Shown here piece by piece: positions 1 to 19,786 of a DNA stretch of 27,806 nt. The translations under genes were made by a program, and so were the position numbers. Position 1 is the stretch's first letter. Each line of letters begins with the position of its first letter. Under the pieces are notes generated by a model. That model saw only the letters and a list, made by a program, of their open reading frames with translations, made no database searches and was not told where the DNA came from. Origin of the DNA: Ferrithrix thermotolerans DSM 19514 (GTDB taxonomy: Bacteria > Actinomycetota > Acidimicrobiia > Acidimicrobiales > Ilumatobacteraceae); the NCBI GenBank assembly GCA_945860575.1, contig CAMAQQ010000001.1, forward strand, positions 1 through 27,806, written 5' to 3'.

Positions 1-1160
1 CCAATGCCTTTGAAAGCATCAAGCGAGGCAGTGCCATCGTTTGATTTTTGTGCGGCAACCGTGACGACACTGAATGTGCCGACAACCAAAGCCGCATACA
101 GCACCACATAAACAGCAATTGCAGTCAAGCCGTCACCAACATCAGGCGATGCGCGATGTGACGATGCTTCTAAACCGACAAGAATAAAACCAGCATGACT
201 AATAGAAGAGTATGCGAGCATGCGCTTTACGTCGGTTTGCACTACGGCAACGACTGATCCAACGACAAGCGTCAGTGCTGACAATACAAAAACTGCCGGA
301 CCCCAATCATCGGCACGCGAAGGAAATGCAGTTACAAAAACTCGCACCAGCGCAACAAGCGCGGCGACTTTTCCGGCTGAAGCCATGAAGGCCGTAACCG
401 GAGTTGGTGAACCTTGATAAACATCTGGAGTCCAGGATTGAAATGGCACCAGAGAAACTTTGAAACCAAAACCAACGAGCATCAGGCCAACACCAAGAAG
501 CAACAAAGTGTCGTTGCGTGGAACGGTGATATAAGAATTAAGCGCCAAATTAATGTCAACCAAACGAGTAGTGCCCGTCGCACCGTAGGTAAGTGCGACA
601 CCATACAAAAAGAAAGCCGACGCGAAACCACCAAGGATGAAATATTTCAATCCGGCTTCCTGACTTTCTGCGCGTTTTCGATTGCTTGCAGCCAATAAGT
701 AAAGCGACAAACTAAGAGTTTCTAAACCAAGAAATAATACGATCAGGTCGTTTGCCGCAACCATCACGATTCCGCCGATTGCCGCAGTTAGATAGAGTGC
801 ATAAATCTCGGGCGTGTCGGTGTTTTCACCTGCCAGATAGTCGCTAGTCACCAGACTGACAAGCAACACCGCCGAACAAATTGCAATTGACGCCAGCACA
901 GCAAAATGGTCGAGGGCGAGAGCGCCACCGACAAGAAGTTTCGGACCAGAACTTGAAATATCACGCCATAAAAATATTGACACAATAATTGCGGCACTTG
1001 CCATTAACGCACTGGCTAATCCGTACCAACCACGTCGCCACTGCGGAGTCAATGAACCGACAAGCAAAAGAAACAATGCACCGAACAGCAAAACTAACAA
1101 CGGCGAAATTGAAAACCAATCAATTGCAGGGCCAACAAATTCCGGAATTTGATCGTTCAC
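1..1160 (-). CDS. nuoN: NADH-quinone oxidoreductase subunit N, 3' end cut by window edge
   Basis: Not in the ORF track. Hand translation from GTG 1160 (GTGA overlap with nuoM stop) stays open to base 1: MNDQIPEFVGPAIDW...LFLGLETLSLSLYLL...EAGLKYFILG...GFKVSLVPFQSWTPDVYQGSPTP...KRMLAYSSISHAG. Confidence 0.95.
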   Translation of the reverse strand, partial: MNDQIPEFVGPAIDWFSISPLLVLLFGALFLLLVGSLTPQWRRGWYGLASALMASAAIIVSIFLWRDISSSGPKLLVGGALALDHFAVLASIAICSAVLLVSLVTSDYLAGENTDTPEIYALYLTAAIGGIVMVAANDLIVLFLGLETLSLSLYLLAASNRKRAESQEAGLKYFILGGFASAFFLYGVALTYGATGTTRLVDINLALNSYITVPRNDTLLLLGVGLMLVGFGFKVSLVPFQSWTPDVYQGSPTPVTAFMASAGKVAALVALVRVFVTAFPSRADDWGPAVFVLSALTLVVGSVVAVVQTDVKRMLAYSSISHAGFILVGLEASSHRASPDVGDGLTAIAVYVVLYAALVVGTFSVVTVAAQKSNDGTASLDAFKGI

Positions 1161-2665
1161 TTGGTTTGTCCTTCTACATGCTCAATAAGTGCACCCACAC
1201 TTGGTTCAATTCTGTCGAGAATTGGTTTTGGATAAATACCAGATACGACGATGATCGCCACGAACACAGACATCAACAAACCCTCACGCAAGGTGAGTTC
1301 TTTAAAAGTTGAATTGGCTTCGTCTGGCTCACCATGAAATACGCGTTGATATGCCCACAACAAATAAAGTGCAGCAAGAACAACTCCGACAGTGGCGACC
1401 AGTGTCCACCAGCGGGCAGGACCAAATGATCCGATCAAAATCAAAAACTCGCCGACGAAACCATTGAGACCGGGCAAACCAACTGATGACAGCATGACCA
1501 CCGTGAACACACCAGCGAATATTGGCGCAACATGTTGAATGCCGCGTAACTCGGCGATCTCACGAGTATGGCGACGTTCGTAAATCATGCCGACAAGCAG
1601 AAACAACGCACCTGTTGAGACTCCATGATTGACCATTTGCATTACGGCGCCAGTCACAGCCTGCGAACTAAGGGCGAATGTACCAAGAACAATGAACCCG
1701 AGGTGAGCAACCGAAGAGTACGCCACAAGTCGTTTTAAATCGCGTTGCATCGTTGCGGCAATTGCGCCGTAAATGATTCCGATTACTGCCAGAGAAAATA
1801 TCGCCGGTCGCGCCCACATCGCAGCCTGTGGAAATAAATAAACTCCGAAGCGCAGGAAACCATAAGTTCCCATTTTGAGCAATACACCAGCAAGAATTAC
1901 CGAGCCCCCGGTCGGGGCTTGTGTGTGGGCATCGGGTAACCAGGTGTGAAATGGAAATAATGGAACCTTGACGGCGAAGGCAATCGCAAAAGATAAAAAT
2001 AGCCATCGAGCTGCATTTGTTGAGAACTTTGCACCTTCAGCGATTTTGACAAGATCGAATGTCACCACACCAAGGTCGCGCTGTGCAAGCGCAACTGTTG
2101 CGATGATTCCGATGAGCATGAAAGCCGAACCAGCCATTGTGTAGAGAAAGAACTTTGTTGCCGCATACACCCGTTGGTCGTAGCCCCAACCACCGATCAA
2201 GAAATACATCGGCACCAAAACAATTTCAAACATTACGAAGAATAAAAACAAGTCAAGCGACAAGAACGAACCCATTACCCCAGCTTGTAATAACAGCATC
2301 CAAGCAAAATAAGAAGTTTCATTGTGATGCGGGTCAATACCGACAATCACTAATGGAAACAAGATTCCGGTGAGCACTATCAAAAACAATGAGATGCCGT
2401 CCACCCCGAGATGCCAAGAGATTCCCCATTGGCTGATCCAAGCGTGCTGCGAGACGAACTGAAAACCCGCCTCACCAGTCTTGAACGCGGCCAGCAACCA
2501 CAGCGAAAGTGCTGCAGTTGAAACACTCGAAACTAATGCCGCTAATTTCATCCACTCTGGACGCGAACCACCGAGTAGCGCGACGACTACCGAACCGATT
2601 ACGGGCAATACTACGAGCAGGGTCAGAATTGGAAAGTTAAGTACTTCGGCGCTTGATGCGATCAC
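1157..2665 (-). CDS. nuoM: NADH-quinone oxidoreductase subunit M
   Basis: 502 aa, hydrophobic, FAVKVPLFPFHTWLPDAHTQAPT, GVLLKMGTYG, LKRLVAYSSVAHLG; lies between nuoL and nuoN. Confidence 0.97.
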   Translation of the reverse strand: MIASSAEVLNFPILTLLVVLPVIGSVVVALLGGSRPEWMKLAALVSSVSTAALSLWLLAAFKTGEAGFQFVSQHAWISQWGISWHLGVDGISLFLIVLTGILFPLVIVGIDPHHNETSYFAWMLLLQAGVMGSFLSLDLFLFFVMFEIVLVPMYFLIGGWGYDQRVYAATKFFLYTMAGSAFMLIGIIATVALAQRDLGVVTFDLVKIAEGAKFSTNAARWLFLSFAIAFAVKVPLFPFHTWLPDAHTQAPTGGSVILAGVLLKMGTYGFLRFGVYLFPQAAMWARPAIFSLAVIGIIYGAIAATMQRDLKRLVAYSSVAHLGFIVLGTFALSSQAVTGAVMQMVNHGVSTGALFLLVGMIYERRHTREIAELRGIQHVAPIFAGVFTVVMLSSVGLPGLNGFVGEFLILIGSFGPARWWTLVATVGVVLAALYLLWAYQRVFHGEPDEANSTFKELTLREGLLMSVFVAIIVVSGIYPKPILDRIEPSVGALIEHVEGQTK

Positions 2666-4575
2666 AACAGTGCTCCCCGCAAAAAGAACCAGGCCAAAAT
2701 AACAACTGCGCCAAGACTTATCAACAATGCGTACGCCCGAACGAAACCGCTTTGAGCCCGGCGCAATGATGTTGCGATATTTTGAATCAACTTGCCGACT
2801 CCGTTGACAACGCCATCAACGATGTTGGCGTCAATCCATGTGATTAAATTAAAAGTTCGTGCGCCAGGCCCAGCGATCAGACGGCTTGCGGCATTGTCGT
2901 AGTACCACGCTTGCTCTAGAACTTTGGGCTCAATTGGCTTGATCCATGATTTTGCATAAACCGCAATTGATGCCGCGATTCCGACCACTGCAACGACAAT
3001 CGCTACGACTAATAACAGATATTTATTTTGATAGGCCCATGTCTCACCAATGTGCGCTTCAGATTCTTCAACAACCGGTGCAAGCCAGCGTTCGAGAAAA
3101 TTAAAATTTTTGCCGAAAGGCAATTGCATTGCCCCACCGACTATGGATAAGCCAGACAATATGACTAGTGGCGTCAACATCACCCAACTGCTCTCATGAG
3201 GTGTCAAATCGCCGTGCGAACCGTGTTCAGCGCTGTGATCATTCCACTTTGCTTTGCCGTAAAACACCATGATTACTTGTCGTGTCATGTAGAACGCCGT
3301 CAATAGTGCCGTTATTAAACCAACAACATATAGCCCGCGATTATTTGCATAGACATAAAGCAAAATTTCATCTTTCGACCAGAAACCGGCAAACGGCGGC
3401 ACTCCTGCAATTGCTAGCCAGCCGATAATAAAAGTGAACGCGGTAACCGGCATGACTTTTCGTAGCGCTCCCATGCGACGCATATCTTGTTCATGATGCA
3501 TGCCGTGAATCACAGAACCTGAACCGAGAAACAACAACGCCTTGAAAAATGCGTGGGTCACCATGTGAAAAATTGCCGCGACATATGCACCAGAACCCAC
3601 TGCTAAAAACATGTAGCCCAACTGTGAAACGGTGCTGTAGGCGAGAACTTTTTTAATATCGTTTTGCGCAACGGCAACCGATGCTGCATAAAGCGCAGTA
3701 GCCGCGCCAACAACGGCGATCACTGTTGGCAACCATTCAAACGAAGCATGCAAAACAGGACTCATGCGAGTCATTAAAAACACACCCGATGTCACCATCG
3801 TTGCGGCATGGATCAACGCCGAAACCGGAGTCGGGCCTTCCATCGCGTCTGGCAGCCAAAGATAAAGCGGAAGTTGTGCACTCTTGCCGCAAGCACCGAC
3901 AAAAAGCAGGAGCCCAATTGCTGTTGCTGTTACTGCAGCCAGTTCACCACTATGAGCGGATTCGTTAATTGCGTGATATGAAAGAGTACCGAGACTATTG
4001 AATGCCAGAAACATCGCGGCCATCACACCGAAGTCGCCAATGCGATTGGTGACGAAAGCTTTTTTGCCGGCTACTGCAGCACTGTTACGGGTGTGCCAAA
4101 ATGAAATCAAGAAGTAACTGCAAGCGCCGACACCTTCCCATCCCAAGAACGTGACGAGTAGATTTTCGCCGAGAACAAGCATCAGCATGCTGAAAACGAA
4201 GAGATTCAAATACAAAAAGAATTTCGAGAACTTGGTATCACCGTGCATATAGCCAATTGCATAGAGATGAATCAAAGTTGAAATACCCGTGACAAATAAC
4301 GCCATCACAATGCTTAGTGGGTCTGCTAGAACAGCGAGATCAACTTGCAGTGAGCCGACTCGAATCCACGAGAACATCGTTGCAACATGACTGCGCTCTT
4401 CGGCAGGAAGACCCAGCATCTCAAAATAAGCCAGCACCGTCACAAGAAACGACGATGCTGTTGCGATTGTGGCGACCCAACCTGCGCGTGGGTCGCCAAG
4501 TTTGCGGCCCAAAATTAAATTAATTAAAGCCCCGGCAAGTGGCAGTACCGGTATCAGCCAAATCAAGTCGAGCAT
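2662..4575 (-). CDS. nuoL: NADH-quinone oxidoreductase subunit L
   Basis: 637 aa, GKSAQLPLYLWLPDAMEGPTPVSALIHAATMVTSG, IKKVLAYSTVSQLG, HAFFKALLFLGSGSVIH. Confidence 0.97.
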   Translation of the reverse strand: MLDLIWLIPVLPLAGALINLILGRKLGDPRAGWVATIATASSFLVTVLAYFEMLGLPAEERSHVATMFSWIRVGSLQVDLAVLADPLSIVMALFVTGISTLIHLYAIGYMHGDTKFSKFFLYLNLFVFSMLMLVLGENLLVTFLGWEGVGACSYFLISFWHTRNSAAVAGKKAFVTNRIGDFGVMAAMFLAFNSLGTLSYHAINESAHSGELAAVTATAIGLLLFVGACGKSAQLPLYLWLPDAMEGPTPVSALIHAATMVTSGVFLMTRMSPVLHASFEWLPTVIAVVGAATALYAASVAVAQNDIKKVLAYSTVSQLGYMFLAVGSGAYVAAIFHMVTHAFFKALLFLGSGSVIHGMHHEQDMRRMGALRKVMPVTAFTFIIGWLAIAGVPPFAGFWSKDEILLYVYANNRGLYVVGLITALLTAFYMTRQVIMVFYGKAKWNDHSAEHGSHGDLTPHESSWVMLTPLVILSGLSIVGGAMQLPFGKNFNFLERWLAPVVEESEAHIGETWAYQNKYLLLVVAIVVAVVGIAASIAVYAKSWIKPIEPKVLEQAWYYDNAASRLIAGPGARTFNLITWIDANIVDGVVNGVGKLIQNIATSLRRAQSGFVRAYALLISLGAVVILAWFFLRGALL

Positions 4576-4577
4576 GA

Positions 4578-4898
4578 CTAGCCCTTCAACTCGGCAAGAT
4601 CGTCGGCGGTAACCGAACTGCGATTGCGCATGATCGCCACGATGATGCCGAGTCCCACGACTACTTCAGCGGCGGCAACCACCATTACAAAAAATACGAT
4701 CGTCTGACCGTTGATGTCGTTTAGTTGTCGAGCCAAAGTAACGAAACTGAGATTCACTGCGTTGAGCATCAACTCGATACACATGAACATAACCAGCGGG
4801 TTGCGACGAACTAGAACTCCGAATGTTCCAATCCCAAAAAGCACGGCACTCAACACGAGATACCAAGATGCAGTTGGGGCCAGTGAGAGCGCGATCAT
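4578..4898 (-). CDS. nuoK: NADH-quinone oxidoreductase subunit K
   Basis: 106 aa, 3 [14 protein letters not shown] and [10 protein letters not shown] with both conserved Glu. Confidence 0.96.
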
Positions 4899-5443
4899 TT
4901 TGGATTCTCAGCCACTGAATTTTTGGTTCGTCGCGCTAGAAGCACAGTACCGACAACCGCAACAACTAACAGCACCGAAGTTACTTCGAATGCGACAACA
5001 TATTGAGAGAAAATAGATTGTGCGAGTTGCTTGGTGTTTGCGTCAGAATCATTGAGTAAATCCGGAATATTCAACCCCGCGCCACGTTCTTGCAACACGC
5101 CACTACCTGTCGCAAACGCGGCAACGAGTACCCCAATCAAGCCCAAACTGACGATCACTGCAAGTGGGCGTTGGGTTGTTAGCGGTTCGGTGCGAAGATT
5201 TTCAACTCGATCAACGCCCAACAACATGATCACGAACAAAAACAGCACGACGATGGCGCCGGCGTAAACGATTACTTGTACGGCGGCAAGAAAGTGTGCC
5301 TCTTGAATCACGAATAGAACCGCCACGCCAAAAAGTGTCAGCACAAGACTTAACGCCGCATGCACTGGGTGCTTTCGAATGATTACTCCGACTGCACCAA
5401 CTACAACCATCAATGCGGCGCAGCCAAAAACAAAGAGTTCCAT
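4895..5443 (-). CDS. nuoJ: NADH-quinone oxidoreductase subunit J
   Basis: 182 aa, [39 protein letters not shown]. Confidence 0.96.
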
Positions 5444-6076
5444 TTATTCGCTCTTATCTTCTGCAGGGCGGATGCCATAACCAAGTTCACCGCTCCAAGA
5501 CACGACGCCAGTGAAGTTCGCGTCACCCGATGCCGCAGTTGCTCGCATCCATCCTGAGGTGTTTTGATCTTCGCCTTCGCGCCAATCTTCCCACGCGAGC
5601 TGCTTAGGTTTTCCAGAGTTGTCGACGAGAAGTTCACTTTTCGTATAAATGGCATCTTGACGATTTGTGAATGAGAACTCAAAAAGTTTTGTTTCGGTAA
5701 TCGCTTCAGTTGGGCATGCCTCGACGCACAAATCACAATGAATGCAACGCAGGTAATTGATTTCATAAATCCAACCGAAGCGCTCTCCGGGTGAAGTCGG
5801 TTTCATAGGGTCGTTATCGGCCCCGCGAACATGAATGCACTTGGCTGGACAAACTGCGGCGCATAACTCACAGCCGATGCATTTTTCCATGCCGTCTTCA
5901 TATTTATTGAGAACATGACGACCATGTAGACGCTCTGGCTTCTCGAGCTTTTCGTCCATCTTGACTGCGCGTTTTTTGTTTCGCTGAAATACTCGACCAC
6001 CGGAGTATTGCGTTGTGACACGATTTTTTTTTCCGCGTTGACGAAGCGTAACTATGAACCCGCCGAGGTATCCCAT
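5444..6076 (-). CDS. nuoI: NADH-quinone oxidoreductase subunit I (210 aa, start moved to ATG 6076)
   Basis: [12 protein letters not shown] and [15 protein letters not shown] 6076 overlaps the nuoH stop (TAATG); the 6196 start in the track would lie inside nuoH. Confidence 0.95.
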
Positions 6077-7293
6077 TAGAACATTTGTCCTTGTGTCTCG
6101 CGTTGCCGCGCACTTTGAGTAAAGGCTGCTTGCAAAAGAAGATAGCCACCAACCATCACGACAATCGAGATCGATGTAACCAAAATAATATTCCAATCGT
6201 TTTGCCGAGCCATGCGTTGTGATGCCAACAACATGAACCAGCCAAGACCACCAGGGATAAGAACCTTCCAGCCGAGATCCATTAATTGGTCATAACGCAA
6301 ACGCGGAAGAGTCGCGCGGAACCAAATATATATATAGAGGAAGACAAGAACTTTGGCCAGCAGCCAAAGTGTGCCCTCAAGAGCGTTTGGAATCACCGGA
6401 ATATCGAGTACGAAGTTTCCGATTGCAATTGGTTGCGGACCGCCAAAGAACAGTGTGACGATAAGCGCCGACATAGTGACCGTATTCATAAATTCGGCAA
6501 GATAAAACAATGCAAATCGAATTGACGAATATTCTGTATTGAATCCGCCAACAAGTTCTTGCTCGGCTTCAACCAAATCAAATGGCGGACGGTTTAGCTC
6601 TGCCGTCGCAGCGATTAGAAAAATAATAAATGGCACGATGCCTGTTGAAATTACGTTCCACTGAGTAACTGTCTCCTGAGCCGCAACGATGCCACTCGTC
6701 GAAAGTGTGCCCGCGAGCAACAGCACACAAGCCAACGACAAACCGAGCGCCGCTTCATAACTCACCATTTGTGCCGATGCTCGAACAGAACCAATAAGTG
6801 GATATTTTGATCCACTTGACCAACCTGCGAGCATGATGCCGTAAACGGCAATCGACGAAATCGCGAGAGCGAACAGCACGCCAATTGGTGGATCAGCCAG
6901 TTGAACTTTTGTTACATGACCAAACCAAGTGACTTCACCACCGTTACCATCGCGGAAATCTCCTCCAAGTGGAATAATTGCAAACGCCAAAAACGCAGGT
7001 ACGAAAGACAAAAACGGCGCAAGTGCAAAAACAAAACGATCTGACCGATTTGGAATCAAATCTTCTTTAAAAAATAGTTTGATGCCGTCGGCCAGAGTTT
7101 GCATGATCCCGAACGGACCTGTTTTGTTTGGCCCGATACGATTTTGCATTCCGGCAATTGCCTTGCGCTCAAACCACACCATCAGCATTGTTGCCAGCAA
7201 CCCAACCACAAATACAACCACGACCTTTAACAGCACAATCAACAAAGGCACCCAAAGTATTTCATCTAGGAATAGAGCGTCCAGAGCGATCAC
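6076..7293 (-). CDS. nuoH: NADH-quinone oxidoreductase subunit H (405 aa, start moved to GTG 7293)
   Basis: [67 protein letters not shown]; GTGA overlap with nuoG stop. Confidence 0.96.
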
Positions 7294-9659
7294 TTGATTT
7301 GCTCGATTCGAACATCGATCACATCTGCCGCAATATTCAACAATGGACGAATATCTACATTTGTGTGGTTGTATGGCAACCAAGCGGTACCACGATTGAT
7401 TCCATTGTGAGCCCTGACTGGTAAAACAATATTTATTTCGTCAACACCAACCCGAATATTTGTGCCGTCTACGACACCGATTCGAGCAAGATCTAACGGG
7501 TGAACATAAATTGTTGATTCGGTGATTATCCCCACGAGTGAATTACTGGTGATAGTGGACTGGGCTGCGTCATACATTGTGCGAGACACAATTAGTCGAT
7601 AACTATATGAATTTCGGTCTACCAAAACTTTGGACCCACGAGAAATTGTCGCTGATGCTTCATGAACCATCAGCACGCCGTCGCTTTGAATCGCCGATTG
7701 ATTGTCACAAGAAGAAAACCCTGGGATTGCCGAAATCATTTTCTTGTGCAACTCGTCAAGACTTGATACGCCAAGATCTATTCCAAGGCTCAATCCAAGT
7801 TCGGCGGCGATCATCCAATCCGGGCGCGATGTGCCTCGTGGGGTGATCTGCTGTGAGACATTGCTGACGCGACCTTCGAGGTTCGTCGTTGTACCTTTTT
7901 TTTCGGCGAACGCCGCAGCCGGAAAAACAACATCTGCGTTTTCGTTGGCGCTCGTAACAAAAGTATCGATGCTGATGACACTTTTGATCTGCGATAGTGC
8001 TTGCTTGACGAGTATCGAATCGGCGACATCGGCGAGCGGATTTGCTCCCAGCAAAATTAGGCAATTAATTTTGCCAGCCGCGGCCTTCGTCAAGATATCA
8101 ATTGCATCACCAGAGTTTTGTTGCGGCGTAAGACCTACGGCCACTGCGCCACGAACATTGCCACGGCGTAAAACAGGAAGAATTTTTGCATTTGGAATTG
8201 CATGCAACAATTCTCCCAACGCATGTAAAGTGAATGCTTCGTTCTCGGCTAAATTTGCGCGACCTAGAACGACGACGACTTCACCTCGCGCGATTTGCTC
8301 TTTCATCTCTTGGGTTTCTAATGTCTCTCGCACAGTTTGGGCCTGATGGCCTGGTTCAAATGCGACGCTTCTCCACGCATATGGTGTCAAGCCGGAGTCA
8401 TGCGAAGAAAACTCAATAATTCGTGAATTGCGCTTTTGCGCTGCATCTCGAATTCTTAGATAAAGAACCGGCAGTTCTTCTTTGAGATCAGGAGCCAACA
8501 AAATGATCGTGCTGGCGGCACAAGTTTCATCGATTGTTGCTTGTGCAAGATTGAAAATTTCAGGTGTTAAACCATCACCGAGTTGCGAGTCGCGTTGATT
8601 AATCTTCAATTCATCGGCCAGCATTGCCCAGGCAAATGCGTCTTCGTTGGTGCCTCGCGCCCCACCAAGAATCGCCACAGAATCTGCGCCGTTTGTGAGT
8701 GCATGGCGAATTATTCTTGCCGCTGATTCAAGAGCGACCGACCAAGAACTCGGCACAAGACCCGCATCAGACTTGATTAACGGAGTAGTAAGACGCTCGG
8801 TCGAATTGACTGATTCAAAGTTGTAACGACCGCGATCACACAACCAGCCCCAGTTGACGGGGTCGATATCTACGCCCTGATATCGCACAAGTTCATCTCG
8901 GCTGCTTTGCACAACGATGCGACATCCGACCGAGCACGAGGTGCACGTAGTTTCAGTTTCATTCAAATCCCACGGACGGGCCTTGAATCGATATGGCTTT
9001 GCGGTCAACGCACCGACCGGGCAAATTTGCACTGTGTTGCCAGAAAAATAGCTGCTGAAAGGTTCTTCAGGAAATGTTAAAACCTGTGTGTCATTGCCGC
9101 GACTAGTGAACGAAATCAGTGGATCACCTGCAACTTCGTCGGCGAATCTCGTGCATCGATCGCACAAGATGCAACGCTCGCGATCAAGATAAACAATGTC
9201 ACTGATCGCAATTGGTTTTTCGTAGTGACGCTTTTCTTCGACGAACCGACTTTCACCTGGCCCGTGACTGAACGCCTGATCTTGCAACGGACATTCTCCG
9301 CCTTTATCGCAAACAGGGCAATCAAGCGGATGATTTGCGAGCAACAGCTCAAGCACACCTTCTTGCGCTTTTTTGACGGTGTCAGTTGCGGTGCGAACAA
9401 TTTGCCCTTCGGCAACTGGCGTCATACACGAAACAACCATCATTGGTCCGCGGGGTGTTTCAACTTCGACAAGACATTGTCGACACATGCCGACCGAACT
9501 CATGCGAGGGTGGTAACAAAATCTTGGAATGAAATCATCCGTGCGATCAGCAGCGGCGATAATCACCTCGCCCTTGCGGGCTAAAACCGGCTTGTCGTTG
9601 ATCGTGATGTTTACAACATTCGGGTCAACAACGACTTTTTCTGGATCAACAATCGTCAT
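7290..9659 (-). CDS. nuoG: NADH-quinone oxidoreductase subunit G
   Basis: 789 aa. Fe-S motifs FCYHP..GMCRQC, HPLDCPVCDKGGECPLQ, CILCDRCTRF..ICPVGAL and an N7-type CTSCSVGC..WLCDRGR. Confidence 0.97.
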   Translation of the reverse strand: MTIVDPEKVVVDPNVVNITINDKPVLARKGEVIIAAADRTDDFIPRFCYHPRMSSVGMCRQCLVEVETPRGPMMVVSCMTPVAEGQIVRTATDTVKKAQEGVLELLLANHPLDCPVCDKGGECPLQDQAFSHGPGESRFVEEKRHYEKPIAISDIVYLDRERCILCDRCTRFADEVAGDPLISFTSRGNDTQVLTFPEEPFSSYFSGNTVQICPVGALTAKPYRFKARPWDLNETETTCTSCSVGCRIVVQSSRDELVRYQGVDIDPVNWGWLCDRGRYNFESVNSTERLTTPLIKSDAGLVPSSWSVALESAARIIRHALTNGADSVAILGGARGTNEDAFAWAMLADELKINQRDSQLGDGLTPEIFNLAQATIDETCAASTIILLAPDLKEELPVLYLRIRDAAQKRNSRIIEFSSHDSGLTPYAWRSVAFEPGHQAQTVRETLETQEMKEQIARGEVVVVLGRANLAENEAFTLHALGELLHAIPNAKILPVLRRGNVRGAVAVGLTPQQNSGDAIDILTKAAAGKINCLILLGANPLADVADSILVKQALSQIKSVISIDTFVTSANENADVVFPAAAFAEKKGTTTNLEGRVSNVSQQITPRGTSRPDWMIAAELGLSLGIDLGVSSLDELHKKMISAIPGFSSCDNQSAIQSDGVLMVHEASATISRGSKVLVDRNSYSYRLIVSRTMYDAAQSTITSNSLVGIITESTIYVHPLDLARIGVVDGTNIRVGVDEINIVLPVRAHNGINRGTAWLPYNHTNVDIRPLLNIAADVIDVRIEQIK

Positions 9660-11694: not shown

Positions 11695-13046
11695 CGATCA
11701 ACTTCTCCAAGAACTGGGTCAACAGATGAAATTACGGCAACCGCATCAGCGATAAGTCCGCCATGCATCATCAACGGCATCGACTGAATGTTCACAAAAC
11801 TTGGCGCTCGCACATGCATTCGATACGGAGTTGATGAACCATCGCTGGCTATATAACAACCGATTTCACCCCGCGGACTTTCAATTGCAACATAAGCCTC
11901 GCCCTCAGGTACTTTGAAGCCTTCCGTGAAAATTTTGAAGTGGTGAATTAACGCTTCCATTGATTCGTCAATGCGTCCGCGCGGTGGCGGAGTAACTTTT
12001 TTGTCCTGAATTCGATAATCACCTTGCGGCATCCGATCTAAAATTTGTCGAACAATTCGCATCGACTCACGAATTTCATTGAGGCGAATCGAGTAACGAT
12101 CAAATGCATCGCCATAACTGCCGACAATTACATCAAACTCAACTTCTTCGTAACGCAAATATGGCAAATCTCGACGGAGATCCCAAGCCAAACCCGTGCT
12201 ACGCAATATCGGCCCAGTTGCACTTAAAGCAATTGCTTCGTCGCGAGTGATTACTCCGACACCTTGCAGCCGTTCGCGCCAGATCGGCTGACCAGTCATT
12301 AAAATTTCGTACTCGGCTAAACGCTCTGGCAATGCATCTAACAAGCCGAGCACATCGTCTCGCCACCCTGCCGGAAGATCTGCTGCGACCCCGCCTGGAC
12401 GAATGAAGTTGTGATTCATTCGTAATCCGGTGACTTTTTGGAAGAAGCGCAGAACTTCTTCACGCTCACGAAAACCGTAGAGCATCATCGAGACTGCGCC
12501 GATGTCCATGCCGTTAGTCGCCATAAACAATAAATGGCTGCTGATGCGATTTAGTTCTGAGAGCATCATTCGAATCCACACTGCTCGCTCTGGAATATCA
12601 CCATCGATACCGAGGAGTTTCTCTGTGGCCATCGAGAATACGAGTTCGTTATTTAGTGGCGATGCATAATCCATTCGCGTGACATTGGTGCCACCTTGCA
12701 TATATGTCAGCGACTCGCCGGTCTTTTCCATTCCGGTGTGCAAATAACCAATCACGGGCTTGCAACGTAAAACTGTTTCGCCTTTTAGCTCAAGCATCAA
12801 GCGCAACACTCCGTGCGTGCTTGGGTGTTGCGGGCCCATGTTGATGATCATGGTCTGATCTTCGCTTTGAGTGTCAGCCAGTGACGCAACCTGCGACTCA
12901 CTCATTCGCAAAACCGCACCAGACTCGCGAAGCACGGCCTTGACCGACATATCGGCACGCAATTGCAGTTCTTGACCACCCTCGGAGGTGCCGGCAGAAA
13001 TAATTTCCGTCGCGTTAATTTTGTTTAAGTTCTCCGTTGTCGTCAC
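11691..13046 (-). CDS. nuoD: NADH-quinone oxidoreductase subunit D (start probably GTG 13046)
   Basis: INMGPQHPSTHGVLRL, GYLHTGMEK, RMDY, ESPRGE, SSVDPVLGEVDR. GTG 13046 overlaps the nuoC stop; the exact start is uncertain. Confidence 0.96.
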   Translation of the reverse strand: MTTTENLNKINATEIISAGTSEGGQELQLRADMSVKAVLRESGAVLRMSESQVASLADTQSEDQTMIINMGPQHPSTHGVLRLMLELKGETVLRCKPVIGYLHTGMEKTGESLTYMQGGTNVTRMDYASPLNNELVFSMATEKLLGIDGDIPERAVWIRMMLSELNRISSHLLFMATNGMDIGAVSMMLYGFREREEVLRFFQKVTGLRMNHNFIRPGGVAADLPAGWRDDVLGLLDALPERLAEYEILMTGQPIWRERLQGVGVITRDEAIALSATGPILRSTGLAWDLRRDLPYLRYEEVEFDVIVGSYGDAFDRYSIRLNEIRESMRIVRQILDRMPQGDYRIQDKKVTPPPRGRIDESMEALIHHFKIFTEGFKVPEGEAYVAIESPRGEIGCYIASDGSSTPYRMHVRAPSFVNIQSMPLMMHGGLIADAVAVISSVDPVLGEVDR

Positions 13047-13510
13047 GAGGCCGCACCTTTGAACTGAACTGGAATGTTGCCTTGCGAGTAATCCTTGCGC
13101 AATGGAAACCCAATCCAATCTTCTGGCATCAAAATTCTCGTCAAATCTGGATGACCCGTGAATGTGATACCGAACATGTCATAGACCTCACGCTCCATCG
13201 CCTCTGTGCCCGGATAAATATCAAATGCCGAATCTATGGAAGTATCGGATTCAGAAATTTGCACGCGCAATCTGCATCGACGGCGCTGAGAAAGCGAAAG
13301 TAAATTAACGACGAGTTCAAAGCGTTCGAGTGTTATTCGACTGGCGACTTCGGCATCCAGTGGCCGACCAGGGTGTGTCAAGAAATCAACTGCAGTGAGA
13401 TCTGCACACATTTCGAAACCTTCACTGCGCAGCGCAGTAAGAGTTTTTATGTAGTCAGTTTTTGCGACGAAACGAACATCATCGGCGGCAAGACCAGCAG
13501 GTTGCGTCAT
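13043..13510 (-). CDS. nuoC: NADH-quinone oxidoreductase subunit C
   Basis: 155 aa, DLTAVD, EREVYDMFGITFTGHPDLTRILMPEDWIGFPLRKDY. Confidence 0.96.
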   Translation of the reverse strand: MTQPAGLAADDVRFVAKTDYIKTLTALRSEGFEMCADLTAVDFLTHPGRPLDAEVASRITLERFELVVNLLSLSQRRRCRLRVQISESDTSIDSAFDIYPGTEAMEREVYDMFGITFTGHPDLTRILMPEDWIGFPLRKDYSQGNIPVQFKGAAS

Positions 13511-13513
13511 TTT

Positions 13514-14098
13514 TCAACGTTTTCCGAGGATCACTGGAGTGATTGAGCCAGCAGGGATTTCTTGAATATGAACTTGGGCTCCGGCACCAGTTGATGCGCG
13601 ACGCTTCATGATCTCACCGTCTTCAATTAACTGATGCAAAGTTTCAATCGCATGAATCAAAGTTTCAGGAGTAGGTGGGCAACCCGGTGCATAGACATCA
13701 ACAGGTACTATCTGGTCGACACCCTGGACGATTGCATAGTTGTTGAACATTCCACCACTGCTGGCACAAACGCCCATTGAGATAACCCACTTGGGTTCCA
13801 TCATTTGGTCGTACACCTGTCGCAAGACTGGCGCCATCTTTTGACTGACGCGTCCAGCGACGATCATGATGTCTGCTTGACGCGGTGACGCCCGAAATAC
13901 TTCCATTCCGAAACGTGCCAAGTCATAGTGAGCGGTGCCTGACGCCATCATCTCAATTGCGCAACATGCCAAGCCGAAAGTTGCAGCCCAACTCGAGCGC
14001 GAGCGAGACCACTTAACGAGATCTTCTACACGGCCAGTGAGAAAATTATGTTCGAGACCACCTAGACCGTCGTCTAATACATCGCGAACTGTTCCCAT
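13514..14098 (-). CDS. nuoB: NADH-quinone oxidoreductase subunit B
   Basis: 194 aa, [40 protein letters not shown]. Confidence 0.97.
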
Positions 14099-14574
14099 TA
14101 GGACGAAACTTTTTCGGTTTGACGGCCGTCAAGGCCAACACGACGAATGGTTGTCGCTGTCGTACGCGATGCCGAGAAAATATCATCATCAATCGTCAGC
14201 AGTTGACGCGGCTTAGTTATCGGACCCCAATCAAGTGCGCCACGAGCGACAACATAAACGAATGCCACAAAAAACACCGCGCTAAACGCGACGAACTCCC
14301 AGAAACCATAAGTGCCAAGTTCAGCGCTGGCGACTGCGAAAGGATACGCAAAGATAATTTCAATATCAAACATGATGAACAACATCGCCACCACAAAGAA
14401 ACTCACCGGAAATCGTTCTGGTGCTTCTCGACTTGGAACGATTCCGCATTCGTATGGCGCTTCTTTGGCAGAGTTGGGTCGCCGTGGTGCCAATAATTTT
14501 GACGCGACTAAAGATCCTGCGCCAAATAAAATTGCGAGAATTGTCAGTACGACGATTGGAAGATACTGACCCAC
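14098..14574 (-). CDS. nuoA: NADH-quinone oxidoreductase subunit A
   Basis: 158 aa, [26 protein letters not shown] followed by a roughly 40-aa tail. Confidence 0.96.
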
Positions 14575-14577
14575 GTT

Positions 14578-15390
14578 TTATGCCTTTGCGGGCGACTGCT
14601 CGTTAAGATTCTGTCGCAAAGTCAAATCTCTTTGATGCAAGATACGACAGAGCAACAAGAAAATAATTGATGAGCCAATCGTTATAAAAATTGCAGGTTG
14701 GCGCTTGCTACCCAGATCCCGAATCATGTGAACATATCGGCGCGGTTGCGTTTCGTCAACTACTGGCTTAGCCGGCGCACGACCAGGCTCGGTGCGCTGG
14801 GGCAGAACTGGTGCTACTTCAACAAGCGCAAAATGAGGCTTATGAAAGAACGCGACAAAATCGAGCGACTCGTTTATTTTTGGCCAACGCTCTCCGCCCT
14901 TGTTATAGACAGCGAGTGAAATATATTCTCCCGCTTGGAGTTCTTCGGCTTCGCGCTGAATGATGTCATCAGAAGCAGCCACCGCTTGGCCACGACCGGT
15001 GTCAGACTCTGCCAGTAGCAACCAACCTTCAAGCTGAAGTGCTTTTGAAACCTCGGCTGAATCACTTTGCGCTGACCCGGTCAAAGTTAATGAGGACTCC
15101 AAAATTTCCGCGCCCTGCAATTGTGACGGCTCGCGCACGATCGTCACGGGTTCGGCGGGTTGCCATGTTGGTTCTCGACCTTTCAGACCAATGCCGTATG
15201 TCCACCAAATCGCTCCCATTGTCGCCATCCAGCCGAATAGTCCAGCGAGCACAATCAAAAAACCCAAGCGCGCACCCAAGTTGGTGCCGACTACTAAATA
15301 AGTGCCACCAATAAGAACACCGACAGCGATCGCGACGATAACAATGCCGCGTAATTCTGGCTCCCAGTTAATTGCAAGTAGTGACAACAT
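14578..15390 (-). CDS. Hypothetical membrane protein (two N-terminal TM, soluble domain, one C-terminal TM)
   Basis: 270-aa ORF with a 0-nt gap to the cytochrome c stop and 3 nt to nuoA. No family motif recognised. Confidence 0.88.
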   Translation of the reverse strand: MLSLLAINWEPELRGIVIVAIAVGVLIGGTYLVVGTNLGARLGFLIVLAGLFGWMATMGAIWWTYGIGLKGREPTWQPAEPVTIVREPSQLQGAEILESSLTLTGSAQSDSAEVSKALQLEGWLLLAESDTGRGQAVAASDDIIQREAEELQAGEYISLAVYNKGGERWPKINESLDFVAFFHKPHFALVEVAPVLPQRTEPGRAPAKPVVDETQPRRYVHMIRDLGSKRQPAIFITIGSSIIFLLLCRILHQRDLTLRQNLNEQSPAKA

Positions 15391-16431
15391 TTACAAACCT
15401 CTTACATAATCAATAACAGCAGCAATTTGCTCGTCGGTGAGCATTAACCCGAATGCAGGCATTCGACCTGAACCTTGACCTTGTTGCCCATATCTTTTGC
15501 CAAGTTCACTACCACCCTTGATGAACGCAATCATCTCGTCGCGTTGTGGAAACTGGCGAACGGCCGAACCGCCCGTGAGGTTTGGGCCAAGTGCTCCGCC
15601 GCCGGTGATTTGTGGTTCGCCATACGACCAACCCTTTGTATGGCAACGGGCGCACGAAAAGTTTCCGCTACCTAGATCTAAATTAAACAATGCCTCGCCA
15701 ATGGTGGCATAAGTTTTTGCTTTAACCAATCGCTCTGCTTCGGCTTGAATCTCTTGTTGTTTCTCTTCTGGCAGTTTTCCATTTTCGTCGCGCGGAATCT
15801 GAATACTCTTGACATAATCAAGAACGGTTTGAATCTGCTGCTCGTTCAAAGGCCCACCACCAACGAGGCCCCATGCAGACATCGGCGAGAACGGCCGACC
15901 ATAATTCAAAATAAATCGAAATTCTTCTTCGCTGTATCGATAATAAACCGTGTTTATCGCTGGTGCTTTCCAGTTGACTTGCTTGACCTCACCTGTATTC
16001 GGATCAGTGAGTGCATACGCCGCGACACCGCCACCACCCTTCATCCCCCCGTGGCATCCTGCGCAGTTATAACCACCATCTGAAGTAGTTGCGAATAAAC
16101 CGCTACCCCATTCTTCGAACTGGTGTTGAAATTCTTTTTCAGCACCGACCATTCGACCAGGCTCGAGAATCCAATAAAGAGGCAAAGCGATCGTGACTAT
16201 TGCAAGAAAGGCCAGTCCAATCAATTGGGTGCGCTCAATCTTTTCGCCCTCAAGACGTTCGTCGTCGTAATACGGTTTACGGTTCGCCGCAAGTTTTATT
16301 TCCGAACCAACTTCGCGTTTCGCCGAACGAATATTCGACAAACCATAGACAATCCAACCGAGTACAGATACGAGAAGAATTACCCAGGCGATCGTTGTTG
16401 TTGTGTCGGCGAGAACAACTGCGGCATTCAT
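15391..16431 (-). CDS. Membrane-anchored diheme cytochrome c of a Rieske/cytochrome b complex
   Basis: CAGCH (16051-16065) and CARCH (15640-15654), candidate distal Met in PMSAW and RMPAF, two N-terminal hydrophobic helices. Confidence 0.9.
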   Translation of the reverse strand: MNAAVVLADTTTTIAWVILLVSVLGWIVYGLSNIRSAKREVGSEIKLAANRKPYYDDERLEGEKIERTQLIGLAFLAIVTIALPLYWILEPGRMVGAEKEFQHQFEEWGSGLFATTSDGGYNCAGCHGGMKGGGGVAAYALTDPNTGEVKQVNWKAPAINTVYYRYSEEEFRFILNYGRPFSPMSAWGLVGGGPLNEQQIQTVLDYVKSIQIPRDENGKLPEEKQQEIQAEAERLVKAKTYATIGEALFNLDLGSGNFSCARCHTKGWSYGEPQITGGGALGPNLTGGSAVRQFPQRDEMIAFIKGGSELGKRYGQQGQGSGRMPAFGLMLTDEQIAAVIDYVRGL

Positions 16432-17280
16432 TTAGTGACTTCCCTCTGCGCCAACGCAGTTTGGTCCTTCGGCTTCTTGGCCCGTTGTGTTAGTTCCGAT
16501 TGGCGGACCACCAAAAACTGCACCGGTGTCAATAATCACCATCCCATTATTTACTGAAACTCCGAAACGATCCATTCCCCGTGGGGCGGGGCCACCTTTT
16601 TTCTCTCCCACACGGTTGTATTGCGAACCATGACACGGGCACTCGAACCACTGCGAAGTTTTGCATTCTGGGACTCGACAACCAAGATGCGGACACTTTT
16701 GATACAACGCGACGACGCCAGCATTCATTCCTGAAAAAACTGCACCCTGGCCTCCGTACGAGACTTCTGCTTTCGAAATCGCTTCCTTTGGATATTCAGT
16801 TATCCAAGAGCGCGCTTCGGGCAAATACAAAAAACCATCGGCAGCACGAATCTGGGCAACTACGTCTTCAATCTTGCCCGCGTTGATTTTCGACCCGAAG
16901 CCGCCTTCGGCACCTTTCCATAAAAATGCAATCAGAGCGGCCGCGAAACCGCCGAGGCTGGCACTCATCAGGGTTACTGTGGCGCGATTTAGAAATGCAC
17001 GCCGCGTTTCACCAAGTGCTTCAGCATCTGGTGCAACCCATGTTTCAATTGCGGGTGGTGGCATGACGGCTAGTGCATTGCGGCTTGCAACACCTTGATG
17101 CTCGGCCTCACGCGAGGAGTTGCGCGCGACTTTTGCAGCATTTCGATCTCGCTTACGAGTCTCACGCGACAGTGATCCAACACCTTTAATATCAGAGCGG
17201 CGTGAGGCAGTAAGCACAACGCCAAGACCAAGCACGGCGAGCACGGCGATCGCAATTGTGATGATTGAAGTTGAGTTCAT
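16432..17280 (-). CDS. petC: Rieske [2Fe-2S] subunit (PetC/QcrA-like)
   Basis: CPHLGC (16678-16695), CPCHGSQY (16618-16641), twin-arginine motif TRRAFL (16990-17007), KGGPAPRGM. Confidence 0.93.
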   Translation of the reverse strand: MNSTSIITIAIAVLAVLGLGVVLTASRRSDIKGVGSLSRETRKRDRNAAKVARNSSREAEHQGVASRNALAVMPPPAIETWVAPDAEALGETRRAFLNRATVTLMSASLGGFAAALIAFLWKGAEGGFGSKINAGKIEDVVAQIRAADGFLYLPEARSWITEYPKEAISKAEVSYGGQGAVFSGMNAGVVALYQKCPHLGCRVPECKTSQWFECPCHGSQYNRVGEKKGGPAPRGMDRFGVSVNNGMVIIDTGAVFGGPPIGTNTTGQEAEGPNCVGAEGSH

Positions 17281-17296
17281 TTAAGTAATAGTCCGA

Positions 17297-18034
17297 TCAC
17301 AATTCGAAGAAGATGCCTTCACGCCATGGGAAGACAAAGTTGAAACCAGGACCTCTAAAAAATGAACCAATAATTACAAGCACCGCCCAAAACATCAAAT
17401 GGACCGTCCACAAACTCGTCAAAAACTTTCGATCTTCGGGACGATTTGATTCATTGCGATCCAAATATGGCGCAAGCATCATTGCGATGATTCCCATTCC
17501 GGGAATTGTCACACCGGCAATCATCGGATGAAACATCGTCAACAGCTCTTGCAATCCAAGAAAGTACCAGGGTGCTTTTGATGGGTTCGGTGTTTGATTG
17601 AAGTTTGCCGCTTGCAACAACGGCGCGTTTACAAACCACGAAAACATAAATACAAATGCAGTACATGCGAGCGACGCAACAAACTCAACGCCCAACAAAT
17701 GTGGCCAAGTATGTACTTTGTCAACTGGAACCGCTTTAACATCTTGAATCGACCCTGATTTAACAACGGTCAGCAAACGCTGTGTATGTCCACCAGGTCC
17801 GGCTCCGTAAGGGATGCTTCCGTTTGTTGGCGCTCCCACGACAAGAGCACTGGGCTTTTCTGCCACAGCAACCGCACCACCTGCGGCTTTGCTTCGCTCA
17901 AGCAAATCAGCCGGAATTCGCGAACCTGCATCGCTACTCGCAGCAGTTGGTGCCGAAGCACCTGCTGCGTCAGCAGCAGCTTTTTCGCGCGCCTCTTGCG
18001 CCCGTTTAAGCAGATGTTCTGGAATGCCGGCCAT
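17297..18034 (-). CDS. petD: Cytochrome b C-terminal part / subunit IV-like protein (PetD-like)
   Basis: TWPHLL..ANFNQTPNPSKAPWYFLGLQELL aligns with the WP..ANP..TP..PEWY region of subunit IV; 3 TM; TGATG overlap with the cytochrome b gene. Confidence 0.87.
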   Translation of the reverse strand: MAGIPEHLLKRAQEAREKAAADAAGASAPTAASSDAGSRIPADLLERSKAAGGAVAVAEKPSALVVGAPTNGSIPYGAGPGGHTQRLLTVVKSGSIQDVKAVPVDKVHTWPHLLGVEFVASLACTAFVFMFSWFVNAPLLQAANFNQTPNPSKAPWYFLGLQELLTMFHPMIAGVTIPGMGIIAMMLAPYLDRNESNRPEDRKFLTSLWTVHLMFWAVLVIIGSFFRGPGFNFVFPWREGIFFEL

Positions 18035-18819
18035 CAGAGTGGTCCTGAGATTCCGCCGTCTTTACGCACGCGCCAGAAATGGATCGCGAGGAAGATGACA
18101 GTAACAAATGGGAAAAGTAAGACGTGCAACACATACCATCGCAGAAGAGTTTCTGGTCCGATCTCTACTCCGCCCAGCAAAACGAAACGAACTTGTGAAC
18201 CAATCACTGGCGAGTATCCCATCATGTTGGTACCCACCGCTACTGCCCATAGCGCAAGTTGATCCCATGGCAACAAGTATCCAGTGAACGAAAGCAGAAG
18301 AGTGAGTGTCAGCAATATTACGCCAATCACCCAGTTGAACTCACGAGGCGCTTTATACGCACCATGATAAAAAACACGAGCCATGTGTAAAAACACCGCC
18401 AACACCATCAAGTGCGCTCCCCATCGATGCATGTTTCTGACCATCAATCCAAACGTCACCGACGTGTGCAACGACTGAATGTCTTGCCAAGCATTGGCTG
18501 ATGTCGGACGATAGAAAAACATTAAGAAAATTCCGGTGATGGTAAGCAAGATGAATAAAAAGAAACTCAAGCCACCCAAGCACAGTGTGTAGCTGACTTT
18601 TACAGCGTGACGCTTTACTTTTACTGGATGCAAGTGATAGAGCACAGAGTTCATAACTACATACGAACGGTTTCTTGGTGAGTCTGAGTAACCCTTGCGG
18701 AATATCGATCCTGGTCGGAAGATTGAGTTCCACGCTTGGCTGCCCTGCAATGACTCATTTAATTTTGTTATGCGATCTTTGATCGTCAGACGAGATTTTT
18801 GTTCGAGCATTTGAACCAT
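18034..18819 (-). CDS. petB: Cytochrome b N-terminal part, cytochrome b6-like (PetB-like)
   Basis: TLCLGG, MHRWGAHLMVLAVFLHMARVF, GYLLPWDQLALWA, LHVLLFPFVTVIFLAIHF, and the C-terminus GISGPL found in cytochrome b6. Confidence 0.93.
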   Translation of the reverse strand: MVQMLEQKSRLTIKDRITKLNESLQGSQAWNSIFRPGSIFRKGYSDSPRNRSYVVMNSVLYHLHPVKVKRHAVKVSYTLCLGGLSFFLFILLTITGIFLMFFYRPTSANAWQDIQSLHTSVTFGLMVRNMHRWGAHLMVLAVFLHMARVFYHGAYKAPREFNWVIGVILLTLTLLLSFTGYLLPWDQLALWAVAVGTNMMGYSPVIGSQVRFVLLGGVEIGPETLLRWYVLHVLLFPFVTVIFLAIHFWRVRKDGGISGPL

Positions 18820-18837
18820 TTAATTTATTCTCCGTTC

Positions 18838-19251
18838 TTAAAATCGCATGCCATATGAATAGCCATGATTATTCGTTCGCATATGAGTTTCGCCAGTCGC
18901 TGGCGCAACGCCAACCTTGCCCAAGATAATTACTCCTGTTGGACATCGATCAACGCACAGCGCACAACGCGTGCAAACATCATCGTCAATAATAAACACA
19001 ACCTTGTCCGAAGGATCATCACCCGGCAACTCAGTGCCGTCAGCTTGTGTGATTGCTTCTGGCGAAACCATGAAGATGCACTTCCATGGGCAAATATCCA
19101 CGCATCCTTCGCACATAATGCACTCTGACTGATCAATATGTATGAATTGCTTTGGCTTGACTGCTTTGCTCAGGTATTCGGCATCAACCTCAACAAGTTG
19201 GTAGTCATCCGTATACGGCATCATCGGCGGGTTTGCGTCAGTTTTTGCCAT
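18838..19251 (-). CDS. 2x[4Fe-4S] dicluster ferredoxin-like protein
   Basis: CIMCEGCVDICP (19088-19122) and CTRCALCVDRCP (18940-18975); no TM or signal peptide evident. Confidence 0.92.
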   Translation of the reverse strand: MAKTDANPPMMPYTDDYQLVEVDAEYLSKAVKPKQFIHIDQSECIMCEGCVDICPWKCIFMVSPEAITQADGTELPGDDPSDKVVFIIDDDVCTRCALCVDRCPTGVIILGKVGVAPATGETHMRTNNHGYSYGMRF

Positions 19252-19254
19252 GGC

Positions 19255-19731
19255 TCAACTTCTCTTCACCAGTGGACGTCCGTAAGTTGAAGTTGCTACT
19301 TCTTTAGTAACTACTTCTCCACGCTTCTGCCACCACTTGAATAAATAAATCATCAGGCCGATGTAATAAACATGGATGACTACAACGATGATGTCGCGAA
19401 TTGCTTCGTAACTAATAACGATCGGAAAGCTTCCGCCAATCGTGTCTGACTTCAAAATATCAAATGGTCCGTAGACGAGTTTGTCTTTACGCCATCCAAG
19501 ATCTTTGTCGGCGTGGTCGATCCACTGGTGAGGCACAACACCAAACGCCAAAAACAAAACTGCAAAAACATAAGCGGCACCCAGCATCGCTTCGCCCCAA
19601 GTTGCTTTACGATCAAAACTTCGACGCTTGCCAATTGGAATTACAACAAGACTCATGAGTGTGGTCAGTACGAGCGAAAACAAGAATGCCTGATTCACTC
19701 CTGGCCACCTGAGAATGTCAATTGCGAGCAT
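19255..19731 (-). CDS. Hypothetical 3-TM membrane protein, first gene of the run
   Basis: 158 aa, ATG 19731, purine-rich GAGGAAAGG upstream, 3-nt gap to the ferredoxin. Confidence 0.87.
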   Translation of the reverse strand: MLAIDILRWPGVNQAFLFSLVLTTLMSLVVIPIGKRRSFDRKATWGEAMLGAAYVFAVLFLAFGVVPHQWIDHADKDLGWRKDKLVYGPFDILKSDTIGGSFPIVISYEAIRDIIVVVIHVYYIGLMIYLFKWWQKRGEVVTKEVATSTYGRPLVKRS

Positions 19732-19745
19732 TGGTTGAGGGCTTG

Positions 19746-19786
19746 CCTTTCCTCGTGAGAAACTGTTTTTAGCCTAGTCGTCACGA
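19746..19786 (-). promoter_or_regulatory. Candidate promoter (-10 TAGGCT at 19771-19776) and SD-like tract for the long respiratory run
   Basis: TANNNT hexamer 40 nt upstream of ATG 19731 and GAGGAAAGG at 19746-19754. No convincing -35. Confidence 0.4.

Follow-up and report, generated by a model that had tools for sequence, protein, structure and literature searches.

The stretch of DNA analysed here (the window, 27,806 nucleotides (nt), contig CAMAQQ010000001.1 of assembly GCA_945860575.1) is recorded under Ferrithrix thermotolerans DSM 19514, of the family Ilumatobacteraceae, order Acidimicrobiales, class Acidimicrobiia and phylum Actinomycetota. The names carried by near-identical proteins and loci point to freshwater Acidimicrobiia akin to Ilumatobacteraceae. 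The window is one entire contig (C1) of a metagenome-assembled genome (MAG) of 1.33 Mb that is 74% complete, and it carries 21 co-directional minus-strand genes in a row, which run from position 19731 to position 3 (Table 1). Fourteen of these genes, nuoA to nuoN, encode the subunits of NDH-1 (complex I) in canonical order and with the NADH module NuoEFG; 13 are complete and nuoN is truncated by the end of the contig. The seven genes that precede nuoA encode the parts of a b6-type complex III, namely cytochrome b6, subunit IV, a Rieske protein and a dihaem cytochrome c, together with a ferredoxin and two membrane proteins, here called unk158 and unk270. Searches with Pfam and NCBIfam confirmed the identities of the genes in the block, except for these two membrane proteins.

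Gene junctions were measured by taking the start codon closest to each upstream stop. In the upstream part the spacing is 3 nt between unk158 and the ferredoxin, 18 nt between the ferredoxin and cytochrome b6, -1 nt between cytochrome b6 and subunit IV, 16 nt between subunit IV and the Rieske protein, 0 nt on either side of the cytochrome c gene, and 3 nt between unk270 and nuoA. From nuoA/B to nuoM/N the values are -1, 3, -4, -4, -4, -4, -4, -1, 0, -4, 2, -4 and -4 nt. An earlier note on this DNA had described 21 consecutive minus-strand genes with such gaps, and its description was reproduced by the listing of open reading frames (ORFs) and the scan for start codons. It had also stated that all of complex I is present, which is right for the genes and their order, with nuoN incomplete, and that there is no room for an internal promoter outside coding sequence, which holds; a promoter could still lie within a gene. 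NuoA, of 158 amino acids (aa), has a C-terminal extension of about 40 residues (window 14098-14220) past its Pfam domain, which ends at residue 116.

Table 1. Features of the window, with coordinates on the forward strand.
Feature	Coordinates	Strand	Evidence or remarks
nuoA-N (NDH-1, including NADH module NuoEFG)	3..14574	-	Pfam and NCBIfam
nuoN (cut)	3..1160	-	
nuoM	1157..2665	-	
nuoL	2662..4575	-	
nuoK	4578..4898	-	
nuoJ	4895..5443	-	
nuoI	5444..6076	-	
nuoH	6076..7293	-	
nuoG	7290..9659	-	
nuoF	9656..11083	-	
nuoE	11080..11694	-	
nuoD	11691..13046	-	
nuoC	13043..13510	-	
nuoB	13514..14098	-	
nuoA	14098..14574	-	
unk270, membrane protein with three transmembrane (TM) segments and a periplasmic domain	14578..15390	-	AlphaFold2 (AF2) model, predicted local distance difference test (pLDDT) 86.6
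Membrane-anchored dihaem cytochrome c, QcrC-like	15391..16431	-	Two cytochrome c domains; CAGCH and CARCH
Rieske [2Fe-2S] protein with N-terminal membrane anchors	16432..17280	-	PF00355; CPHLGC and CPCHGS boxes
Subunit IV, C-terminal half of cytochrome b	17297..18034	-	PF00032; overlaps cytochrome b6 by 1 nt
Cytochrome b6, N-terminal four-helix half of split cytochrome b	18034..18819	-	PF00033, 157 bits; NF040969, 304 bits
Cytoplasmic 2x[4Fe-4S] ferredoxin, NuoI/polyferredoxin-like	18838..19251	-	Fer4 families
unk158, membrane protein with three TM segments	19255..19731	-	Conserved cytoplasmic tail S-x-YGRPL
Divergent intergenic region	19732..20048	.	Presumed to hold the promoters for both the 21-gene block and the divergent cytochrome c gene
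Membrane-anchored monohaem cytochrome c	20049..20873	+	N-terminal match (MAGIPEHLLKRAQEAR) to the N-terminus of subunit IV; divergent position conserved in the order
Geranylgeranyl-reductase-like flavoprotein (GGR, MenJ-like)	20965..22260	+	Domain match, synteny
Rex redox-sensing repressor, intact gene	23041..23733	-	Put_DNA-bind_N and CoA_binding domains

The seven upstream genes, referred to below as the b6 module, are built around a split cytochrome b. As read from the translation, cytochrome b6 has the haem ligands H-x13-H in helix B (NMH...FLH) and H-x14-H in helix D (VLH...AIH), and its motif TLCLGG, at residue 78, contains the CxGG cysteine of a predicted haem-ci site, the residue to which haem ci is bound in b6f and Firmicute enzymes. 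CLGG is conserved in all 60 diverse loci compared, and the Qo motif of subunit IV, APWY at residue 154, is found in 57 of 58. Among solved relatives of cytochrome b6, the chloroplast and cyanobacterial proteins are the best, at 170 bits, with mycobacterial QcrB at about 85 bits. The score of cytochrome b6 against the NCBIfam QcrB model NF050120 is 117 bits, where the cut-off is 500, and the gene is split, unlike the long, unsplit QcrB; the Rieske protein reaches 20.6 bits against the NCBIfam model of actinobacterial QcrA, where the cut-off is 275. Identity with ExtP/ExtQ of Geobacter was considered and rejected: cytochrome b6 scores above the NCBIfam cut-off for ExtP, but the Ext cluster differs, so that the score reflects a generic b6 likeness. 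The Ext cluster has multihaem cytochromes and is without a ferredoxin (PMC5877670). Subunit IV also has a long cytoplasmic N-terminal extension with two IPxxLLxR[SA] motifs. A motif search found four copies of this motif (MAGIPEHLLKRAQEAR) in the MAG, two of them in subunit IV (17917-18025), one at the N-terminus of the divergent cytochrome c (20058) and the fourth on contig C96 (851-1333), where it ends a 160-aa protein that weakly matches Nfu_N (Fe-S scaffold); the motif may be a common docking peptide.

Of the other three components of the module, the ferredoxin contains the motif CxxCxxCxxxCP twice and has a conserved extension at each terminus, and neither a signal peptide nor a TM segment was detected in its translation. 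At residue 58, after the first cluster motif, it has a ninth invariant cysteine, in CPWKC (CPW-x-C), which is present in all orthologues read across the phylum. Its closest solved chains are generic polyferredoxin, NdhI and NuoI modules only. Within the module only one gene is more conserved: across the class the ferredoxins are 65-82% identical to that of the window, and their mean column identity is 81%, against 36% for unk158 and 34% for unk270. Such conservation would fit an obligate subunit with many contacts. Across the class the module begins with unk158, which matched nothing in Pfam or NCBIfam, also when its alignment was searched at E<=1; its AF2 model (pLDDT 81) consists of three long helices and had no significant match in a fold search of the PDB. 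In the model of unk270 two N-terminal TM helices form a hairpin, which is followed by an alpha/beta domain on the periplasmic side and by a last TM helix at the C-terminus. This protein had no match in Pfam or NCBIfam, and none of the 27 members of its alignment matched a Pfam family at E<=1. In fold searches the model had no significant PDB match, and its matches in the AlphaFold database (AFDB) were unnamed orthologues. A single AFDB match was labelled DUF3068, yet no member of the alignment matched DUF3068 in Pfam at E<=1, and this assignment was rejected. The family of unk270 comprises 644 cluster representatives at E<=0.001. An Atlas look-up gave hypothetical actinobacterial clusters only.

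The b6 module shares features with several known respiratory complexes and differs from each of them. Cytochrome b6f of cyanobacteria and chloroplasts and the b6c complex of Firmicutes and heliobacteria (Bacillus QcrABC) have in common with it the split cytochrome b, the H-x13-H and H-x14-H ligands, CxGG and the Rieske protein. However, their Qo motif is PEWY or PDWY where the window has APWY, their c-type partner is cytochrome f or a subunit IV-c fusion where the window has a separate dihaem cytochrome c, and only the window's operon integrally includes genes for a ferredoxin and for two membrane proteins of no known family. The actinobacterial bcc complex (QcrCAB, which forms CIII2CIV2 in Mycobacterium and Corynebacterium) occurs in the same phylum, also oxidizes menaquinol and has a similar dihaem QcrC-like cytochrome c, whereas the cytochrome b of the window is split and b6-like, with scores far under the QcrB and QcrA cut-offs, and its genes are not linked to cta, the oxidase being of the caa3 type and encoded on another contig. 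Kartal and colleagues are said to have described, in 2013, Rieske/cytochrome b complexes with an NAD(P)-oxidoreductase-like subunit in the anammox organism Kuenenia. These share with the window a Rieske/cytochrome b core and an extra cytoplasmic redox subunit in the same cluster, but the window is without a flavoprotein, an NAD(P)-binding subunit or multihaem cytochromes, and its module is the sole complex III of aerobes. With the APWY clade the window shares both APWY and CxGG on a split cytochrome b; WCMGG is common in that clade, whereas the window has CLGG. Ilumatobacter coccineum is among five split actinobacterial cytochromes b assigned to the PEWY-cyt c or APWY clade, and no APWY enzyme had been characterised at the time of that survey (Kao and Hunte 2014, PMC4122944). 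The survey covers cytochrome b only, and the ferredoxin, the two membrane proteins and the nuo fusion are absent from it. As for complex I, other nuoA-N operons of Actinomycetota, e.g. the Rex-regulated nuo of Streptomyces, contain these 14 genes in identical order, also with overlapping junctions, a rex gene is likewise encoded near the block, and many relatives of the window keep a Rex-like operator. In the window, by contrast, nuoA is without an intergenic promoter region and is preceded by seven complex III genes, and the Rex operator has decayed.

A synteny survey, which the earlier note had proposed as a check, found the gene order and the tight junction conserved throughout the loci sampled from the window's taxonomic order. 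A ferredoxin profile matched at least 590 species genomes, of which the nearest 80 species were examined. Among these, the gene order of the window was present in all 42 loci long enough to judge, with the aligned ends of unk270 and nuoA 6-101 nt apart in each. Forty further loci were picked across the families of the class, and here the direct fusion to nuo was found in 11 of 11 loci from the window's order, which represent six families (f1, f2, f5, f6, f7 and f8). Because the same order and the tight unk270-nuoA junction recur in all the long loci and all the order-wide loci, the arrangement can hardly be due to chance. Elsewhere in the class nuo is divergent behind the GGR gene (f11, f18, f21, f25, f27, f31 and f34), co-directional after 360-440 nt (f23 and f30) or separated from the module by rex and GGR (f10 and f28), and no nuo gene was found within range of the module in f12, f13, f14 and f16. 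The seven-gene module itself is intact in loci across the families of the class, whatever the arrangement of nuo, and of 151 genomes sampled from the class, 130 yielded unk270, which is full-length also in orders where nuo is not fused.

The ferredoxin extends further still, with orthologues by profile search in 124 of 301 genomes of the phylum, many of them from families outside the class (this tally takes in four genomes flagged unpublished, G151, G195, G233 and G262, which the fetched loci exclude and which underlie no other result given here). All 20 loci examined from other classes have the ferredoxin, cytochrome b6, subunit IV, Rieske protein and dihaem cytochrome c, often with a short unk270-like protein next to them, and no nuo gene was found within about 7-11 kb on either side. 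By exact-match look-ups these loci include Nitriliruptoraceae, Euzebya pacifica and Egibacteraceae, with no annotation beyond ‘4Fe-4S binding protein’ or ‘hypothetical’. The module was present in all 60 diverse loci, and the ferredoxin gene lies directly upstream of cytochrome b6 in 59 of them. Since the b6 module occurs without nuo in other orders and classes, the fusion to nuo would be a later, lineage-specific rearrangement that became fixed in one order and is not class-wide. By the same comparison, the ferredoxin, unk158 and unk270 should be counted as parts of the b6 module, and neither as parts of complex I nor as a bridge between complexes I and III, because all three accompany the Rieske/b6 genes where nuo is divergent, spaced or not nearby.

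In addition, the b6 module appears to be the only complex III of the Acidimicrobiia. A single cytochrome b was found in the MAG, and five complete or near-complete relatives have exactly one each, which is always that of the module; the search for a second qcr cluster suggested by the earlier note thus returned none, by way of a second cytochrome b, in the MAG or in these relatives. It follows that the module is the housekeeping quinol:cytochrome c reductase, and that it necessarily runs forward whatever else it does. Cytochrome bd was not found in three of the four relatives searched (G008, G019 and G003) and is present in the fourth, G014. The cta genes, which the earlier note had also asked after, lie on contig C25 (747-7008) as a caa3 oxidase operon in which no qcr gene stands beside COX2, COX1, COX3, COX4 and CtaG. 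In this operon COX2 is fused to a cytochrome c domain, and COX1 ends in a tail that resembles subunit IV. Upstream of COX2 there is a 395-aa ORF that matched nothing in Pfam, and the operon includes another, short gene that is COX3-like.

Taken together, the window quite likely holds a respiratory super-operon in which nuoA-N has been placed behind an older seven-gene complex III operon, with co-ordinated expression of the two and with accessory subunits that belong to the b6 module. The older operon would encode a menaquinol:cytochrome c reductase of the split-cytochrome-b, haem-ci (CLGG), APWY-Qo type, which presumably feeds the caa3 oxidase, and nuoA-N would have come to lie directly after it in the window's order. 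All 21 genes would then be expressed from one promoter in the divergent intergenic region, with translational coupling, and a single operon would probably provide a co-ordinated supply of the NADH-to-cytochrome c segment. Transcription data are available from four freshwater metatranscriptome runs with contigs 90-95% identical to the window, which cover the module and cross most of the junctions. One such contig, from a close relative, bridges unk270 and nuoA at 14480-14691, and none matched 19612-19865. Since the junction is conserved and is bridged by this contig, the 21 genes are probably co-transcribed. The claim of co-expression in the earlier note is borne out to the extent of a tight, conserved block and an RNA contig across unk270/nuoA, and co-transcription itself is still only probable. 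Inside nuoA, at 14275-14293 on the minus strand, there is a terminator-like hairpin (8 pairs, 5 of them G-C) followed by a T-run, over the codons for VAFSAVFFV; it is probably fortuitous.

Several observations weigh against a single co-ordinated operon with an obligate ferredoxin. The RNA contigs were assembled from related strains, the libraries may contain DNA, and two genes that lie on one contig need not share a transcript. Summed contig depth, which is a poor measure here, is 0-13 over nuoA-D and 10-35 over the module, a drop that fits attenuation or a separate, weaker nuo transcript. The position and role of the ferredoxin are read solely from its co-location and conservation, and one genome, G096, has the module without it. 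Moreover, POR_N, the domain of POR-type 2-oxoacid:ferredoxin oxidoreductases, had no match in G008 and G019, both of which keep the ferredoxin, so that simple PFOR or 2-oxoacid input to the ferredoxin is not general; reduced ferredoxin from these oxidoreductases was on this ground rejected as a general donor. G096 additionally carries a second, long cytochrome b, and two families of its order that are without the module (G047 and G029) carry a long cytochrome b instead.

The depth drop, together with the fact that nuo has its own promoter behind GGR in other orders, is what speaks for two transcription units, in which nuoA-N would be expressed mainly from a promoter inside the coding sequence of unk270 or cytochrome c and the fusion would have little regulatory meaning. 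Sigma-70-like hexamers do occur inside unk270 (e.g. 14759-14731), but at the chance rate, and promoter-like sites as a whole (10 observed, 9.8 expected from shuffles) are in no excess. Given also that the 3-nt gap of the window is matched by closely spaced gene ends in every one of the 42 relatives, and that an RNA-library contig runs across the unk270/nuoA junction, we regard this arrangement as fairly unlikely. The stronger proposal of the earlier note was that complexes I and III form a physical supercomplex bridged by unk270, unk158 and/or the ferredoxin. It can draw on the tight and conserved gene fusion, on the shared neighbourhood of module and nuo, in varied arrangements, across much of the class, and on the NuoI-like character of the ferredoxin. 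Linkers would be expected only where both complexes are linked, whereas the candidates occur with the b6 module where nuo is unlinked, and a dedication of the ferredoxin and of both membrane proteins to a complex I and III unit is not supported. All three stay conserved and full-length when nuo lies divergently or at a distance, the ferredoxin-b6 core is found in other classes without a neighbouring nuo gene, and adjacency of genes does not show physical contact. A bridged supercomplex therefore seems improbable.

Under the favoured explanation, a super-operon with accessory subunits of the b6 module, the role of the ferredoxin can be considered separately. With moderate confidence, it is predicted to dock at the cytoplasmic (n) face, close to the Qi site and to haems bH and ci, and would link the Qi site electronically to a cytoplasmic redox partner. 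Its likeliest role would be the entry of electrons into the Qi site or their buffering there, the direction of flow being speculative. This is favoured over quinol-driven reduction because the module is the sole complex III of aerobes and its cluster has no flavin or NAD(P) module. A more specific version, doubtful although conceivable, is that the ferredoxin stays in place on the n side as a permanent subunit and wires haem ci and Qi to the cytoplasm, which would make the enzyme a ferredoxin-linked or low-potential-donor-linked quinone reductase on a Q-cycle complex that is, in the window's order, made and perhaps assembled with complex I. To our knowledge, a ferredoxin-linked quinone reductase activity of this kind has long been postulated for b6f in cyclic electron flow and has never been isolated. 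The opposite direction, in which the module would be electron-bifurcating or run in reverse and its low-potential branch (haem bL, bH and ci, then FeS) would reduce a cytoplasmic acceptor, appears very improbable. It has been proposed for anammox Rieske/cytochrome b complexes and for enzymes of the APWY clade, the gene for a cytoplasmic FeS subunit does adjoin that of a haem-ci-type b6, and the APWY Qo motif has been put forward as a mark of reverse-running enzymes (PMC4122944). Nevertheless, no cytochrome b besides this one was found in aerobic relatives with caa3 in which cytochrome bd was likewise not found, so that forward quinol oxidation must be its main job; the cluster has no flavin- or NAD(P)-binding subunit, and by established bioenergetics the transfer of electrons from menaquinol to a low-potential FeS centre against the membrane potential would be unfavourable.

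Lakes, oceans, soils and activated sludge all harbour abundant Acidimicrobiia. Neither the ferredoxin subunit nor the fusion to nuo was found described in the literature searched, where these genes figure only as ‘complex III’ (e.g. PMC12008989) or as a clade of cytochrome b (PMC4122944). A b6-type complex with a cytoplasmic two-cluster ferredoxin beside a haem-ci-bearing cytochrome would be a tractable non-photosynthetic system, which could reveal the purpose of haem ci and how FeS carriers communicate with the Qi site. The operon fusion, in turn, would be a clean natural case of two respiratory complexes under a single regime of transcription and translation.

With regard to regulation, the Rex consensus TTGTGAA-N4-TTCACAA was searched with up to three mismatches, and with a looser core. 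No site with <=3 mismatches was found at the head of the operon (19732-20048); the sole good site lies upstream of rex, where the candidate operator of rex itself is at 23752-23769 (TAGTGCATTAATTCACAA, 2 mismatches). In the corresponding intergenic regions of relatives, a Rex-like site T[TC]GTG-N-TTCACGA with <=3 mismatches was present in 35 of 78, as against 0.5% of shuffles; most of these sites lie 40-130 nt upstream of unk158. In the window and in the five relatives nearest to it, only sites with 5-6 mismatches are left, which suggests that Rex control may have been lost in this streamlined sub-lineage. Two remnants in the window, at 19753-19770 and 19910-19927, each keep one half-site (TCGTGAG... 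and TTGTGCGC..., respectively), with the other mutated.

Beyond the intergenic region, the GGR gene is a constant divergent neighbour of the module, and in orders with a divergent nuo operon it is the first gene of that operon; its position suggests a quinone-tailoring role tied to these complexes. Finally, some public MAG records that contain the Acidimicrobiia locus are titled ‘Bifidobacterium breve’ or ‘Gammaproteobacteria bacterium’ (L057, L060, L090, L091 and L103), and these titles look like errors of taxonomic labelling.

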